This document shows, piece after piece, positions 39,001-45,000 of a stretch of 64,000 bases of DNA. This DNA comes from Waddliaceae bacterium (GTDB lineage Bacteria; Chlamydiota; Chlamydiia; Chlamydiales; SLFE01), in NCBI GenBank assembly GCA_963783885.1, contig CAWAPJ010000043.1, positions 17,030 to 81,029 of the forward strand, written 5' to 3'. Made by a program: the position numbers. Every line of letters begins with the position of its first letter. Position 1 is the first letter of the stretch.

Positions 39001-42000
39001 CGTTTATCTGGCGATGCACATTCTGGTGAATGTCGGCATGATGTGCGGGTTGCTGCCGATTACAGGTGTTCCCTTGATACTGGTCACCTATGGCGGGTCA
39101 TCTGTCTTATTGACAATGACGGCTCTCGGCATATTGCAAAGTATTTACAGCAGAAGATTTATGTTTTAAGGTAGAAGTTATGGCAAGCAAGCATCCCTTT
39201 ATATTCAGTCCGGGCGAGTGGCTTGGGGAAGGCAAAATCGGTTTTAGCGCCTCCGACGACGAGCTTCGTTTCTATACTCGCTGGCTGGTGTCGGAAAAGG
39301 GGGATGAGAGCCTGGGAGTCAAAAATGTCCGCTGCACCCAGGAAGTGGAAATGCAGGGTGGGGCGGACGAAAAAATGTTCAATCGCTTCCATTTTACCGA
39401 AATCGGCACAAAAGAGTTCAAAGTTTTGCTTGAAAACGACCAAATCGGCGCTGTTTTCGGCGAGGGCATCCTAGAAAAGGGGAAACTCGCTTGGGAATTC
39501 AGGGGAAACCCTAATATCGAAGGATTTGAAGTCTATGAGTTTCAGGAGAATGGGGAATACTCCTTTCACGCTGAATATATCTCTCCGGAGGGTTATCGTT
39601 CCATAATAGACGGTAGAATATGGAAAAAAGCCGCTAAAACTTAATAAAATATTAATTTGAAAGTTAATTTACAGTTTATTATAATATTAATATAATAATA
39701 TTAATATTAGGTTTTTATTATGGCTAATTCAGATAATGCAGTTTCATGGGTTAGGGCCACTCCACAGTATATAAGGATGGAAACATTTGAGGGTCCCTCC
39801 ACATATTCGGCAACTTCAAGCATTGCTGAGGAAACATTCAGTACCACCAGCACCTCCAGTTCAGAAGTTAGCCTTAAGAGAAATCGAGTATCTGCTCAGC
39901 CTCCCCCAGGCAGAATAAGTCGGGCATTCCTTTCGGGAAGCAACAAACAAGTGCATTTAGAACTACCTGATAATTTAGATGAGGTAGCAAGTCAGTTAGA
40001 AATGGAAGAGTCAAGCATTCCGGAATCGGCTGCCGCCTTGCAGCAGCAGCAAATGGACGAAAGAAACGCTGATCTTGAGGATGCAGCCCATCATCCTGAA
40101 ACCCTCCCTTTTACCCCCGGACCCGGGTTGGGCCTTCAACCGCCGAAAGTGCGTTTAACTTTGCCTCCCAAAGGTTGGGGCAGCGTTGGCGAAAAGAAAA
40201 TGCTCAAATTCAGAAAAGCCCTCTTAACCGGAGATGTGGATAAGGTTAAAAGCATTGCCAAAAAAAATCCCGACATTGTCAACGGATGTCAAAAGATGTA
40301 TCTGAGGCCGCTTGAGCTGGCAAAATTAGCCCGCAAGAACAAGCAAGACATGATGAAAATTTTGCTTAGTTCCAAGAAAATCAATGTGAATGTTATCGAT
40401 AAAAACGGCAATACCCTTTTACATCGCGCCTGCCTGGTTGACGATATGGAGTTCGCCAAGGTGTTGCTCCAAAACGGAGCTGAACCTGTTAGAGGAGCGG
40501 CGAATAAAATCGATTTTCTTCCTTGGCAAATCGCCACATTTTTCAACAATGAACCTTTGGCGAAGGTAGTGGCTCCCCCTTATACTGACTTAACCTCCGG
40601 ACCGCAGCCAATAAAAGATTACTATGGTTTGACACCGCCAGCCAGACGACCCGACATTGACTATGGGATCAGGCAAACTACCCGCAAGGAAAAAGATATC
40701 GCCAACCCTGAAACCTGGTTGGATTATGACACCATTAAAAAGTCTTTAGATCACATAGTCGCAGACCACAATCGAATGGATGTCTGGGTGGCTCCGGGTC
40801 CAACGGATATGAAGCGAAAATTTGGAAAGTTGAGCAAGACAAACTTGAGAAAGGCAATTGAAGGTTTTCATAAAATTCCTGATCCGGCTCCCCGTTTTTT
40901 AGCTTCAACAGTAGCTGTCGAAGCAGAGCACGGCACCCATGCCGGTTTGCTGATAGTCGATCGTGAAAAAAGGACAGTGGAATATTATGACAGCGCCGGC
41001 AACAGGCCGGATGTGAGTGCGGAGCTGGCTGAAACCGCCTTTGATTTAGGTTATACTTTTCATGAAATGCCGACTCAGGACATGCAGGGCAGCCAGCCCA
41101 GCTGCGGCGTTTATCTCAATTTGTTTCTTCATCACCGCTTGCAGAATGCCGATGAAGAGATAGGTGTCATTAAAGAAAATCTTCAGGGAATGAATACGAT
41201 CGCAGAGGGAAATCCTGAGCAAGAGCAGATATACATCAATTTATATCGCCAACAGCTTCACGACAATGTCGCCGAAGTGAATCAATTGAATAACAAATGG
41301 ATGGCAGAAGCCCGCGGGCAATTTGCTCACAAGCCTTTATCCAATCCGCCTACTTTTGAAGCAGCCTTTGAACGGTTTAAACAGGAGAATCCTTACAACT
41401 ACGAATCCGAACTTAACAGGATGCACCGGTATGGGGTCACCCTCTATAAATATTTTGAGGCGAGGAATGTAGCGAGAGGTGAAAAATACACTGAATACCT
41501 TATGGACAATCCAAAAACAGTGGAATATTTTAGAGACACAGTCGAAATCATCGGAAATAAAGAAGCATTCGATTACTATAACAACATTTTGAATGAGGGA
41601 ACCTCTCAACCAACAGGTCTGGCTCATCCCAATCTACTTGACGAGCCGGTTGCACCTGCCAACCTTCATCCTCCTTTACAGCCGCAAACTCAACCAACCG
41701 GCCTGGCCCCTCCCAACCTAGTTGACAACCCAGTTCCACCTGCCAATCTTCATCCTCCTTTACAACCTCAAAAGATGGATACAGCTGAAGTGCAAAGGTC
41801 ATCAGCGGATGTAGAAAACCAGGATATTGATGCAAAAGTTGAAAAATTGTTTGAGTATATTGATTCAGGTAACGTAGAAGAAATAAAAAAATTATTGGAT
41901 GAAAATCCTAATGCTCAACTGAGAATCGTCAATGGCTTTCCTAATCATTCCGGAAAACCGTTAGAATTAGCCAAAGAGGTTGGCAAGCGTGATGTCATAG

Positions 42001-45000
42001 ACTTACTTGAAGCTTATGATGCATCTCCTTTAAGGCACAGCATTGTATCGGATAAAGGGGAAGAACCTCCTGTGCAGGGCCCGGCTACAAGAAAAGGAAA
42101 AGAAAAAGTGACTTCTCAAGGCACTTCTCCTCAAGCTGAGGAAATAGAAACGCCCCCACCGCTTCCTCCTCGTGAACAAACAAAGGAAGTAGAGGAGCCA
42201 TTATCTCTTCCTCTCATTTTTGAAACTGCAGTTCCAAAATTAACTCAAATTTTCGAATCAGGCAAGTTGCTTCCGACGGAAGGTTCAAAAAAAAGCGATC
42301 AAGCTTTTGAAGAAGCCAAAAAAGATTTGAAGAATAGATTTGATGAATTAAAAGAAAGCATTAAGAATTTTCAAGGTAAACGCAACGAAGAAAATGGTAA
42401 ACGCAACGAAGAAAATGGCCTGGCAGCCTTGAATCAAATTAAGAAATTGAGTGAGGCGCTACGAACAACTGTCGAAGCAAAAAAAGGACCTGGATCAATT
42501 AGGAATTTATTCACACGGAAAACATCCTCAAAAAGAAAATTAGAAAAGCAAAATATTAGAAGAGACGCAGCAAAAATTTTGCGAAGTTTGAATCGATCCG
42601 TTTTGAATACAACTAATATTGATCCATCGAAATCGGAAAATATGGGTAAAATTAATCTCGAAAATGCGAAAAAGACTGTGAAACAATTCGTCGATACCGA
42701 AAAAAACTTAAGTGAATCCCTGAAAACCTATCGCAGTATACTAAGAACTTTAAAAACAAACGAAAGTATAACTCAGGATCAATTTAATATTTTGTCTGAA
42801 GGACTTGACGACATCATTAAGAATTCCGATTCTCTTCTTTCATCTTTGGCTCCCTTGGATAAGAAAGATCCCAATGATCTACCCGATAATTTTATAAATC
42901 TGGTAACTGAAAAAATAGATAATTCAATGCAGGAAAAAATAACCTTCCCAATGATTTCTTACTGGGCAAGGTATGAGAATACCATTCTTCCATTGATTCA
43001 AAGTCTAGAAGGAAATGACGAAACCAAAAAAATAATTTATGAGGAATTAACGAAGAGGAAGTTAGGTGTTAAAGGATTGAATCATTTTGCCTCAATGCCT
43101 TGGCAGCGACTAACGAGATATAAGGATCTTATTGAACGAATAGCTTCCGAATCCGGTTCCAATGAATTAAAGCAGAGAACAGAATTTCAAAAATTATTAG
43201 TAAGATTTGGAAATACGGAAATAGCTCTAGAAGAACTTGCTCCACCTTCTCAAGCAGATAAATCTGTTGAAGCGTCTTCTTCCCAAGTAGAAGATATCGA
43301 GTCCGATTGGGTTGATTTAATTGAAAGTAATCGCAAAAATGCCTCTGAAAATTTAGCTGACGCATTAAAACCAAGAAGAGATGCTTTTATCCTCCCGGCG
43401 ATGTTGAAAGTAGTGACGAGGAAGATGATGAATTCGGTTTTTTGAGCTAAGAGACTGGTAAAAACACAAACGCCCCCTCGCTTTGCTTGCTCAAGATTCT
43501 TCAATTCTCTTCGTCTTTGTGTCTTGAGCGAGCTTTAGCGAGCGGGCGTTTCAATATTTCACCCTTTTTAAGCTTTGATTTTAATGTCCACTCCGGCGGG
43601 GAGGGTCAGGCCCTTGAGGGCGTCGACGGTCTTCCCTGTCGGATCGAGGATGTCGATCAAACGCTTGTGCGTGCAGATCTCGAATTGCTCGCGAGACTTC
43701 TTGTCAACGTGAGGGGAGCGCAGCACGGTAAACACTTCCTTGCGGGTGGGAAGCGGGATAGGGCCCGCTACGCCAGCGCCGGTCCGCTTGGCCGTCTCAA
43801 CGATATCGACAGCTGAGCGGTCAAGAAGCCGTTGATCGTATCCCTTCAGGCGGATGCGTATCTTCGCTCTTTGTTTTTTTGATGATGTTTGCTTTGCCAT
43901 GTTTGCTTATCCTTTAATAATTTCTTCTTGAATCTTGGTGGGAACACGCTCGAAGTGGCTCGGCTCCATCGTATAGGCGGCGCGGCCCGATGAGAGAGAG
44001 CGGAGTGTTGTCGAGTAACCGAACATTTCACTGAGCGGTACTTCCGAATTGATGATGACAGAGCCTTTGTGGTTTTCCTGGCCCTGGATCCTTCCCCGGC
44101 GGCGGTTCAAGTCGCCGATCACATCCCCCATATGGTTTTCGGGAGTCGTGACGACAACTTTCATGATCGGTTCCAGAATAATCGGCTTGGCTTGTTTCGC
44201 CGCTTCCTTGATAGACATGGAACCGCAGATCTTAAAGGCCATTTCGCTCGAGTCAACCTCGTGGTAGGACCCGAAGACAATGGAAACTTTGACGTCGACC
44301 AGCGGGAAGCCGGCGACAACTCCGGTAGAGAGCCCTTCTTCAATCCCTTTGATAGTTGACGGGATGTATTCTCGGGGAATCACACCGCCGACAATCTTGC
44401 TGACAACCTCATTGCCTTTGCCTGTTTCGTTCGGCTCGATCTCAAGCTCGACGTGGGCGTATTGTCCGCGTCCGCCGGTCTGCTTGACGAATTTGGTTTG
44501 AGATTTTCCGGGGGTTGTGATTGTTTCCCTGTAGGCAACCTGAGGTTTGCCGACGTCGGCTTCCACCTTAAATTCGCGGATCATGCGGTCGCGCAGAATG
44601 TCGAGGTGAAGCTCTCCCATTCCGGCAATGATCGTCTGTCCCGTTTCTTCGTTTGTATACACGCGGAATGTCGGATCCTCTTCCGAAAGGGAAGAGAGAG
44701 CGTGCGACAGCTTTTCCCGGTCGGCTTTGGATTTGGGTTCGATTGCCATAGAGATAACGGGTTCGGGAAATTCCATCTTTTCGAGAAGGACGGGTTTTCC
44801 GGGCGCGCAGAGTGTATCTCCTGTGCTGGCTCTTTTGAGTCCGACAAGGGCGACGATGTCTCCCGAGTAAACTTCGTCCATATCTTCCCGCTTATTCGAG
44901 TGCATGCGGACGATCCGGGAAACTCTTTCTTTCTCATCTTTGGTTGTATTGAGGACTGTATCGCCTTTCTTGAGCTGGCCGCGGTAAATTCTTGCATAGG

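Follow-up and report, generated by a model that had tools for sequence, protein, structure and literature searches.

A Dbl-homology RhoGEF domain and a CE-clan cysteine protease domain in one protein of an environmental chlamydia, a probable effector for a eukaryotic host

What is a eukaryote-type regulator of Rho GTPases doing on a bacterial chromosome, what else is joined to it and where would the product act? The questions are posed by a gene within a 64,000-nucleotide stretch (the window, to whose positions coordinates refer) of the genome of a Waddliaceae bacterium, an environmental chlamydia. The survey's finding was of a protein, C43_54 (here also P0001), with ankyrin repeats and a Dbl-homology (DH) domain. 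Both are there, but the description was incomplete in that it omitted a CE-clan protease domain, a further ankyrin-like module and the motif PPPLPPR (Table 1). At the N-terminus is a disordered leader rich in Ser and Thr, followed in order by an ankyrin module, a CE-clan protease domain of ChlaDUB/SnCE1 type, a proline-rich repeat, an ankyrin-like module with PPPLPPR, a charged helical linker and a DH domain that lacks a PH domain.

The open reading frame is uninterrupted. The start previously assigned to it is in frame, but is a GTG internal to a longer ORF, and the ATG 231 nt upstream is the likelier initiator; the 77 residues so gained also align with the orthologue in another Waddliaceae MAG (G001). 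The promoter-like sites 5′ of this ATG are suggestive only, since the whole scanned region has 11 such matches where 7.6 are expected.

Table 1. Features of the protease-DH gene and its upstream region, in window positions
Feature	Position	Strand	Basis or remark
Whole ORF	39720..43445	+	1,241 aa from first ATG; earlier call from GTG at 39951, 1,164 aa
Two overlapping sigma-70-like promoter matches	39657..39696	+	11/12 each; AT-rich spacer before ATG 39720
Ser/Thr/Pro-rich N-terminal segment, aa 1-146	39720..40157	+	Candidate secretion-signal region
Ankyrin-repeat module 1, aa ~147-290	40158..40589	+	Pfam Ank_2, Ank_4, Ank at aa 200-256
CE-clan (Ulp1/ChlaDUB/SnCE1-like) cysteine protease domain, aa ~330-487	40707..41180	+	PDB, Foldseek
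Helical extension after protease core, aa ~488-628	41181..41604	+	Predicted helices, pLDDT 46-82
84-bp tandem repeat, 2.0 copies, proline-rich 28-residue unit	41605..41772	+	84% matches, score 245
Ankyrin-like module 2, aa ~700-770	41817..42029	+	BLASTP to P0003
PPPLPPR motif, aa 812-818	42153..42173	+	Located in translated ORF
21-bp tandem repeat, 2.1 copies, GKRNEEN units, charged linker	42375..42418	+	Tandem-repeat match
DH RhoGEF domain, aa ~977-1183	42648..43268	+	Pfam PF00621, AlphaFold2, Foldseek, VIA-align, profile
C-terminal tail, aa 1184-1241, without PH domain	43269..43445	+	pLDDT 29-42

By identity and by fold, the C-terminal domain is a Dbl-homology RhoGEF. The Pfam figures given before for RhoGEF and Ank are in agreement with the present ones: PF00621 matches aa 987-1147 at 1.1e-10 with 42.5 bits (the cut-off is 27.6 bits), and the two motifs noted earlier are at aa 993-1001 (TEKNLSESL) and aa 1127-1134 (PWQRLTRY). 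That assignment had been made without a fold prediction and is now backed by one, as well as by conserved functional residues. The AlphaFold2 model of the DH fragment has pLDDT 84-96 over fragment residues 51-240 (above 90 over about 190 residues), with no PH domain C-terminal of the DH domain. With it, Foldseek gave DH domains only among the matches listed at E<=1e-3, the best being intersectin, PDZ-RhoGEF, LARG and Tiam1, and all 50 rows returned by VIA-align for model residues 47-255 are DH domains with Z of 16.0-18.5 (for instance 3gf9, where 175 residues align at 1.8 A, and 2dfk_C, where 199 do so at 2.6 A). Alone, the fragment's sequence finds solved DH domains weakly (PIX 0.022, FARP2 0.46), its best single-sequence PDB match (0.0034) being a designed helical repeat. 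A profile of 13 chlamydial DH rows finds 56 distinct PDB sequences, all of them DH, led by the Entamoeba FP10 DH domain (5.4e-18) and Tiam1 (1e-16), and TEKxY and PxQRxxRY line up with the equivalent motifs of the solved domains.

In solved DH complexes the CR1 Glu, the CR3 Gln and Arg and a conserved Asn contact the switch regions of the GTPase. The key residues here are Glu994 of CR1, Pro1127-Gln1129-Arg1130-Arg1133-Tyr1134 of CR3 and Asn1165. Across the 13 rows, which represent about 10 distinct genes because three row pairs are near-duplicates, Glu994 and Gln1129 are invariant and Arg1130 and Asn1165 nearly so. The invariance earlier claimed for QR-x-x-R stands for the Gln (13/13) and not for the two Arg (12/13 and 11/13). 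The domain departs from consensus in CR1 (TEKNL against TEKxY) and CR3 (RYKDLIERI against RYxLLLxxL). Compared with eukaryotic Dbl RhoGEFs (intersectin, Tiam1, collybistin, PDZ-RhoGEF, Entamoeba FP10), what is shared is the fold (Z 16-18.5 over 175-200 residues), the aligned CR1 Glu, CR3 PxQRxxRY and Asn, and a PF00621 score above threshold. What differs is the lack of a PH domain, an identity of 10-19%, replacement of the CR1 Tyr and CR3 Leu triplet, residence on a bacterial chromosome and fusion to a CE-clan protease.

The CE-clan domain sits between the two ankyrin modules. Its PDB matches are 9qte (3e-8), 9qtg (4.2e-8) and 9qtf (7.4e-7), and the alignment to 9qte, Simkania negevensis SnCE1, has a 12-residue identical run, DREKRTVEYYDS. 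The predicted catalytic residues are His407 (40938-40940), Asp424, Gln456 and Cys462 (41103-41105). The His and Cys align with the SnCE1 catalytic residues, and with the C-to-A mutant chain 9qtf the alignment falls on the same column; all four are intact in the G001 copy. Pfam Peptidase_C48 is sub-threshold (0.0038, 17.5 against 20.7 bits). The model of the domain is of low confidence (mean pLDDT 54.8), and what Foldseek finds with it is mainly CE-clan proteases: SnCE1, Ulp1, OtDUB (6upu), Den1, XopD and ChlaDUB1/2. For aa ~405-487 the best relative with a solved structure is SnCE1. From it and from Chlamydia ChlaDUB1/2 the present domain differs by Ala408 where a gatekeeper Trp is expected, by the Peptidase_C48 score, by being embedded in a 1,241-aa protein and by the lack of a hydrophobic N-terminus (relatives L020 and L022 appear, by eye, to be hydrophobic there).

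Pfam finds no family in aa 1-160, of which aa 1-146 may serve as a secretion signal. Ankyrin module 1 has an Ank_2 match at aa 200-256 (1.1e-8), PDB ankyrin and DARPin matches covering aa 147-284, and 39% identity to the same module of the relative P0003. The helical extension has no Pfam family match and is partly alignable to ORF L021 of G003, a genome of the same family. Pfam gives no ankyrin match at module 2 in the protein itself; BLASTP pairs aa 686-770 with P0003 aa 314-399 (33%, 2e-8), a stretch that in P0003 has Pfam Ank_2 and Ank. PPPLPPR, which we take to resemble a class II SH3 ligand (PxxPxR), is also present in the G001 copy, and P0003 has it three times in the form TPPPLP(K/P)R.

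Where would such a protein act? It is probably a large modular effector, a DH domain without PH domain combined with a CE-clan protease, that is likely exported by type III secretion into a eukaryotic, probably protist, host. The data show which domains it has, the DH fold, the conserved residues, the chromosomal setting and the distribution; its secretion, host target and the catalytic activity of both enzymes we infer. Host-directed use is favoured by the presence of a type III export-gate gene (FHIPEP, 1.6e-224), by the failure to find a convincing Ras or Rho GTPase in the genome (there is a single weak match to PF00071, a search so unspecific that 13 of 14 control genomes match as well) and by the lack of any hydrophobic segment on a Kyte-Doolittle plot of the whole protein (highest 19-residue mean 0.99). 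Once exported, the DH domain would bind a host Rho-family GTPase (Rac, Cdc42 or Rho) and catalyse GDP release through Glu994, Gln1129/Arg1130 and Asn1165, and the activated GTPase would bring about local actin remodelling for uptake or inclusion maintenance. At the same site the CE-clan domain would strip ubiquitin or a ubiquitin-like modifier from substrates, or possibly acetylate them. Targeting, the role of the PH domain in eukaryotic Dbl proteins, would fall to the ankyrin modules and proline motifs. If so, one injected protein would steer both the host cytoskeleton and ubiquitin-like tagging.

A rather unlikely alternative is that the protein is secreted but serves as a scaffold, its enzymes dead or re-purposed, and works by sequestration and targeting through its ankyrin repeats and proline motifs. 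The DH domain would bind Rho GTPases without activating them, or bind another target, and the CE domain would be a pseudo-protease or a pure acetyltransferase. Ala408 is pertinent, as the gatekeeper mutant W191A of SnCE1 is reported to be inactive (PMC10643670). SnCE1 itself combines deSUMOylase and autoacetyltransferase activities with weak DUB activity (PMC10643670, PMC13125535). The CE module does decay to a non-catalytic form in the family, as the two CE-like modules of G003 L021 have other residues at the His and Cys positions. The lost CR1 Tyr and CR3 Leu triplet and the missing PH domain point the same way. Against it, this protein and the set of about 10 divergent DH genes of chlamydiae retain the CR1 Glu, CR3 Gln/Arg and Asn, and the CE core has its His, Asp, Gln and Cys both here and in G001.

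It is improbable that the gene is a decaying remnant of an acquired eukaryote-like gene, becoming a pseudogene now that selection is gone. GC3 is low, as had been stated (0.29-0.38): 0.377 over the gene as a whole and 0.29 over its DH part in the 3′ half, far below the 0.53-0.66 of the housekeeping neighbours. The G001 orthologue, the only one found, takes three frames to read and has internal stops, and its identity is 74-86% compared with 95-98% for the neighbours. The C-terminal frame is also uncertain. For the last ~20 codons the frame used may be wrong: an alternative frame over 43397-43450 gives an acidic tail resembling the C-termini of relatives P0002 and P0003, and one low-depth contig of run X1 has a one-letter length difference in the T-run within 43380-43396. 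Set against decay is a 3.7-kb open frame with all predicted catalytic residues intact. The breaks in the G001 orthologue are probably assembly errors, since topA and rodA are also split there, and the 5′ half of the gene is present in contigs of runs X2 and X3 from other studies, with 0-3 differences per piece and no length differences listed over that half.

It is very improbable that the protein is no effector and acts on targets of the bacterium itself, in the cell or in the periplasm. The targets of DH, ankyrin and CE-clan Ub/Ubl protease domains are eukaryotic, and no convincing Ras or Rho GTPase was found in the genome. RhoGEF was found in none of the 14 control genomes and in none of 30 from family f35 (~1.1 Mb), against 19 of 46 in family f31 (listed members 2.2-3.5 Mb). 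That eukaryotic host DNA was misbinned or misassembled into the MAG, as eukaryote-type domains and a composition unlike the neighbours' might hint, is scarcely credible: the gene belongs to the bacterial chromosome, without introns, 75 and 122 nt from its neighbours (rodA and a 154-aa ORF on one side, rpsJ-fusA-rpsG-rpsL on the other) on the contig of topA-SWIB, rodA and the str-operon genes, in an order that is conserved in the independent MAG G001, and no eukaryotic protein is among the seven DH-region matches in 1.84 billion representatives. That number of relatives at E<=1e-3 had been given before and was reproduced. Four of the seven (P0002-P0005) have a Pfam RhoGEF domain; the other three, coiled-coil or HEAT-like, were rejected as due to chance.

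Outside this genus no protease-GEF fusion was found. A DH domain in Chlamydiota is of a kind already known, as 42 of 401 genomes sampled have one and a published supplement tabulates a RhoGEF-domain protein of Protochlamydia. There, Protochlamydia amoebophila pc0323 (Pfam RhoGEF) and pc1363 (Pfam RasGEF) are EffectiveT3-positive and in early expression classes (PMC5451489 supplement file 2). Both are table entries on which the main text is silent. The likeness, drawn from table rows and not sequences, is that these too belong to an environmental chlamydia and share the Pfam domains, and the rows for pc0323 list no protease or ankyrin domain. [quoted passage not shown] The GEF here is, in contrast, a eukaryote-type DH. 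With GEF fold and phylum (Chlamydiota, Rickettsiales) both different, the two fusions are independent.

The DH protein, the only RhoGEF match of its genome in the profile search, has company. The RhoGAP reported earlier is there as a single match (5.8e-9) in an ORF containing GIFRESG, as are the four RasGEF proteins over cut-off, together with one further weak match at C1:126384 (1.1e-22, 5.8e-22, 2e-12, 2.5e-11 and 0.0016 by Pfam for the five ORFs). These RhoGAP and RasGEF-domain proteins would belong to the same repertoire as the protease-DH protein, and the set may, as was suggested, be a toolkit for host Ras and Rho signalling. SopE and the WxxxE family Map/IpgB are bacterial Rho GEF mimics, and SopE/SptP are a GEF/GAP pair. 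The chlamydial protein would similarly be an injected Rho on-switch that the GAP of the same genome could turn off. Those GEFs are structural mimics unrelated to DH, whereas the chlamydial protein is a true DH homologue.

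The survey's finding described this protein as joining ankyrin repeats to a Dbl-homology (DH) domain. Both are present in the single open frame, which encodes 1,241 aa counted from its first ATG, but a CE-clan protease domain (its part at aa ~405-487 matching SnCE1) had been overlooked. The interval first assigned to the gene, 39951-43445, lies wholly inside this frame, though its start is an internal GTG. ATG 39720 is favoured because a 75-nt AT-rich spacer with promoter-like sites lies before it, because the 77 residues upstream of GTG 39951 can be aligned with the orthologue in a related Waddliaceae MAG (G001), and because that orthologue begins with the same six residues as the ATG-39720 product. 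The source genome, 88.9% complete, consists of 46 contigs with a total of 2.16 Mb. G001 has the same gene order as the window, S12-S7-EF-G-S10-[gene]-orf154-rodA-topA, and this synteny among housekeeping genes rules out eukaryotic contamination by host DNA as the source of the gene. In composition the gene is odd beside its neighbours: GC3 is 0.377 for the whole gene, 0.41-0.50 for the 5′ modules and 0.29 for the linker and DH half, against 0.53-0.66 for the housekeeping genes around it.

The DH assignment stands, with Pfam PF00621 (RhoGEF) matching over threshold (42.5 bits vs 27.6, E 1.1e-10); a search of the genome scored the same domain at 47.5 bits. An exhaustive search reproduced the earlier count of seven relatives of the DH region at E<=1e-3 among 1.84 billion representatives. 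Four of the seven carry Pfam RhoGEF over cut-off and the other three reflect chance similarity to coiled-coil or HEAT-like proteins. These four were aligned together with frames of related genomes that contain a DH domain, which gave 13 rows, including three near-duplicate pairs, and so ~10 distinct genes. Glu994, in conserved region CR1, and Gln1129 are invariant (13 of 13 rows for Glu994), and Ser1036, Pro1127, Arg1130 and Asn1165 are shared by 90% of the rows or more. A profile search was needed because the lone DH fragment found solved DH domains weakly (PIX at 0.022, and one spurious designed-repeat match). Searched against the PDB, the alignment profile matched 56 distinct sequences, every one a DH domain, the best being those of Entamoeba histolytica FP10 (5.4e-18), Tiam1 (1e-16) and intersectin (3.4e-16), and the TEKxY, PxQRxxRY and Asn positions were aligned in these matches. 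Glu994 falls on TEKSY and TERTY of the FP10 and Tiam1 domains. The Tyr of CR1 is replaced by Leu in the target; conserved region CR3 has PWQRLTRY (aa 1127-1134) and Asn1165 is kept, with the match partial at the Leu triplet of CR3, which reads DLI.

An AlphaFold2 model of the DH fragment, made on this alignment, has a mean pLDDT of 74.8 (84-96 over fragment residues 51-240) and, as a predicted model only, has the elongated all-helical DH fold. The matches to it listed by Foldseek against the PDB at E<=1e-3 are DH domains only (intersectin, PDZ-RhoGEF, LARG, Ephexin4, ARHGEF2 and Tiam1). All 50 rows returned by VIA-align are likewise DH domains, for instance 3gf9 (175 residues, 1.8 A) and 2dfk_C (199 residues, 2.6 A), at Z 16.0-18.5, which exceeds the Z of ~13-14 that can arise with unrelated helical models. 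Judged by profile and predicted fold, the DH domain of the target is a real one. No PH domain was found after it: the ~58-residue tail (pLDDT 29-42) has no predicted beta strands and no Pfam PH match, and the target does not have the DH-PH tandem architecture.

The overlooked CE-clan domain was recognised by its match to SnCE1 of Simkania negevensis (PDB chains 9qte, 3e-8; 9qtg, 4.2e-8; 9qtf, 7.4e-7; the molecule is named 'ChlaDub2' there), within which there is a 12-residue identical run. In the alignment to these chains, His407, Asp424 (His+17), Gln456 (Cys-6) and Cys462 occupy the catalytic/oxyanion positions, Asp424 and Gln456 standing at the His+17 and Cys-6 spacing usual for the clan, and the Ala of the C256A mutant chain is aligned to Cys462. 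The gatekeeper Trp is absent, the target having His407-Ala408 vs His190-Trp191 in SnCE1. Pfam Peptidase_C48 (PF02902) stays below cut-off on the target (17.5 vs 20.7 bits, E 0.0038) and covers aa 407-431 only; a PF02902 search of the 88.9% of the source genome represented in the assembly gave nothing at E<=0.01, so no other C48-type gene was found there. The domain model from a four-row alignment is poor (mean pLDDT 54.8), and the matches listed by Foldseek for it are mainly CE-clan proteases (SnCE1, Ulp1, OtDUB, Den1, poxvirus I7L, XopD and ChlaDUB1/2), though at TM-scores of only 0.23-0.34. SnCE1 is reported to act chiefly in deSUMOylation, its DUB activity being weak, and its W191A mutant to be inactive (PMC10643670); autoacetyltransferase activity is also reported for it (PMC13125535). 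Given Ala408 and these mixed activities, any one activity ascribed to the CE domain of the target is putative.

The rest of the protein includes two ankyrin modules and proline-rich stretches, and the PPPLPPR motif may be an SH3 ligand. Ser and Thr abound at the N-terminus, which has no hydrophobic segment, and nowhere in the protein does a 19-residue window reach the hydrophobicity of a membrane helix (highest Kyte-Doolittle mean 0.99). NCBIfam gave ankyrin-effector matches, all sub-threshold. The protein can be compared with P0003, one of the RhoGEF-bearing database relatives, a 1,257-aa singleton from a metagenome that is named 'ankyrin repeat protein' by its source. Both ankyrin modules, the linker and the DH domain are common to the two, and nothing in P0003 is aligned to target aa 305-685, for which reason the CE-clan module looks, from sequence comparison, as if inserted into an older Ank-Ank-DH protein, or else deleted in P0003.

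Features of the target gene, its surroundings and the rest of the window (nucleotide positions in the window; aa positions in the target protein)
Feature	Position	Strand	Remark
Low-GC island	449-5362		GC 0.30-0.34, GC3 0.22-0.29
Tandem paralogous ORFs (five)	449-916, 1430-2056, 2078-2713, 3359-4024, 4113-4757		155-221 aa
HipA, apparently split	6352-7892		low-GC region
HipA C-terminal kinase ORF	6352-7269
HipA N-terminal 'Couple_hipA' ORF	7257-7892
ThyX (Thy1)-matching ORF	22006-23643		545 aa
Large ORFs (three)	30814-34463 and 47169-49196		623, 583 and 675 aa
topA with C-terminal SWIB domain	34577-37102	-	upstream of target gene
rodA/ftsW	37997-39169		upstream of target gene
154-aa ORF (orf154)			upstream of target gene
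Two overlapping promoter-like sites	39657-39696		11/12 positions each, in a scan upstream of target gene; weak evidence alone (11 matches in region vs 7.6 expected)
Target gene	39720-43445	+	1,241 aa
Ankyrin module 1	aa ~147-290
CE-clan domain, stretch matching SnCE1	aa ~405-487
84-bp tandem repeat, 2 copies	41605-41772		encodes proline-rich unit
Ankyrin-like module 2	aa ~700-770		33% match to Ank_2-positive stretch of P0003
PPPLPPR motif	aa 812-818		recurs in G001 copy; three times in P0003
21-bp repeat			in charged linker
DH domain	aa 987-1147		PF00621
rpsJ, fusA, rpsG, rpsL			downstream of target gene
Type I secretion-like cluster	56589-63892	-

The orthologue in G001 is broken. By tblastn the whole target protein is found at the syntenic place there in three frames (aa 1-604, 599-943 and 915-1223). 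Stop codons interrupt the first two of these segments, and the gene calls are fragments of 271, 40 and 401 aa. As topA and rodA are each also split between two frames at this locus (G001:C4:2278000-2292000), the breaks are probably assembly errors of the indel kind and not proof of decay; EF-G, S10, S7, S12 and orf154 are intact in the same assembly. A search for related loci with the target protein led to the G001 contig only. Word-index searches, which are blind to distant relatives and do not prove uniqueness, returned among long proteins just the query itself, for the DH region (1 of 5,010 candidates) as for the CE region (1 of 1,016), and among short proteins two fragments of the G001 copy and nothing else.

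The 3′ end of the frame calls for separate comment. Its last ~20 codons (43380-43450) are without counterpart in relatives, and another frame over 43397-43450 gives an acidic tail resembling the C-termini of P0003 and of a second database relative, P0002. One contig of low depth (4.4) from sequencing run X1 departs from the window at two substituted positions and, in a T-run within 43380-43396, in length by one letter. In view of the acidic tail and of this length change, the tail frame of the target reflects either variation between strains or an error in the assembly, and it leaves the DH domain untouched. Near-identical contigs are present in the soil metagenome runs X1 and X4, of which X1 is maybe the source sample and hence no independent support. 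No RNA run is among those listed as carrying the sequence. In the salt-marsh runs X2 and X3, from other studies, near-identical contigs are found for the 5′ half; they cover 39717-41601 (leader, first ankyrin module and CE domain), each piece showing 0-3 differences. No contig piece from X2 or X3 lies over most of 41744-43485, at depths of 2-4 that do not prove absence of the DH half, and short pieces at 41689-41742 are unlike the window sequence on both flanks. These diverging pieces, thin as the cover is, and the GC3 step between the halves may hint that the 3′ half of the gene is exchanged as a module.

The other regulators of small GTPases that had been reported in this genome hold up. The four RasGEF proteins, on contigs C1, C17, C2 and C28, score 81.2, 78.9, 47.8 and 44.2 bits with PF00617 (cut-off 23.1), and a fifth candidate ORF remains below it at 18.8 bits. 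The RhoGAP protein on C28 scores 36.4 bits with PF00620 (cut-off 24.5) and does contain GIFRESG, which we take to be the diagnostic arginine-finger motif. Across 41 genomes (the source genome and 40 relatives of the same order), RhoGEF occurs in 8, in 7 of them over cut-off, RasGEF in 12 and RhoGAP in 4; the three domains are found together in all three genomes of the target's genus and in one other, G035. With the CE region as protein query, 5 of the 41 had matches. Two of these, 318 and 435 aa long, are ChlaDUB-like proteins of the typical sort, and their N-termini look hydrophobic by eye. Another of the matches, a 946-aa ORF in a genome of the same family (L021:397-3234, in G003), has a target-like ankyrin module and two CE-clan-like modules, both with other residues at the catalytic His and Cys positions, and from its sequence looks like a pseudo-protease relative. 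By the word-index searches, the Ank-CE-Ank-DH fusion itself was found only in the target genome and G001.

Over the phylum, RhoGEF matches turned up in 42 of the 401 Chlamydiota genomes sampled (over cut-off in 33). By family, the counts are 19/46 in f31, 5/6 in f39 and 3/5 in f40, and 0/30 in f35, 0/35 in f38, 1/90 in f8 and 1/69 in f5. The genomes of f35 are ~1.1 Mb and the listed members of f31 2.2-3.5 Mb, and this distribution, set beside the overall count, hints that DH/RhoGEF domains go with a protist-associated lifestyle. The RhoGEF, RasGEF and RhoGAP searches each gave 0 of 14 control genomes. No convincing Ras/Rho GTPase was seen in the source genome, where PF00071 had one weak match (1.8e-4, in an 829-aa frame) that says little, the search being unspecific, with matches in 13 of the 14 control genomes.

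A type III export gate is encoded in the genome (FHIPEP match of 1.6e-224 at C1:56130-58157, the sole secretion component checked). This, the lack of a convincing small GTPase of the bacterium's own and recognisable domains that all have eukaryotic partners make an injected effector the most likely identity of the target. Once in the host, it would switch on a Rho-family GTPase of that cell through its DH domain; at the same place the CE domain would edit Ub/Ubl marks, or acetylate, and localisation would come from the ankyrin modules and proline motifs. In Chlamydia the same end is reportedly reached by TarP through recruitment of host GEFs. The characterised bacterial Rho activators (SopE, the WxxxE family and the OtDUB GEF) are, to our knowledge, all structural mimics that are not related to the Dbl family of eukaryotes.

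The best analogy is OtDUB of Orientia, where a CE-clan DUB and a Rac1/Cdc42 GEF are reported to be combined in one effector; however, the GEF fold of OtDUB is V-shaped and unrelated, whereas the GEF domain of the target is of the eukaryote-type DH kind (10.1101/2020.06.04.133876). RhoGEF and RasGEF domains in environmental chlamydiae are already on record: Protochlamydia pc0323 (Pfam RhoGEF) and pc1363 (RasGEF) are tabulated as EffectiveT3-positive early genes (PMC5451489, supplement file 2); the main text of that paper makes no mention of either domain. Beyond these table rows, full-text searches outside subscription journals turned up no paper that, judged by title and abstract, characterises a DH protein encoded by a chlamydia.

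A joint reading of these results can be offered tentatively, as one that we consider rather doubtful taken whole. The target would be the first working eukaryote-type DH Rho GEF in a bacterium, fused with a CE-clan Ub/Ubl enzyme and injected, and so an independent re-invention of the 'deconjugase plus Rho activator' of OtDUB with a different GEF fold. Its divergent DH lineage, in about one tenth of the sampled Chlamydiota genomes, might go back to an early eukaryote-chlamydia transfer, an old date being suggested by a lineage kept so long that a single-sequence search misses the eukaryotic DH proteins. If a real DH domain does function in an obligate intracellular bacterium, it would be a simple, minimal GEF without a PH domain and a way to study specificity and membrane targeting in the absence of that domain. 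The DH-protease fusion, if true, would make Rho activation together with Ub/Ubl removal a recurrent solution of intracellular bacteria, as the two are also paired in Orientia.

Several further features of the window may be recorded. The five tandem ORFs of the low-GC island near its start are 26-74% mutually identical, and none has a Pfam family match. In the apparently split HipA, the order is reversed, the C-terminal kinase ORF being followed by the overlapping N-terminal one. The 545-aa ORF has two stretches matching ThyX and is about twice the usual domain length. Of the three large ORFs at the flanks of the housekeeping genes, those of 623 and 583 aa have neither a Pfam nor an NCBIfam family match, and that of 675 aa has sub-threshold ClpA/ClpB-like matches alone, at aa ~300-410. 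The type I secretion-like cluster encodes an outer-membrane efflux protein, an HlyD-family adaptor and a pair of ABC exporters; one exporter carries a C39 peptidase domain at its N-terminus.
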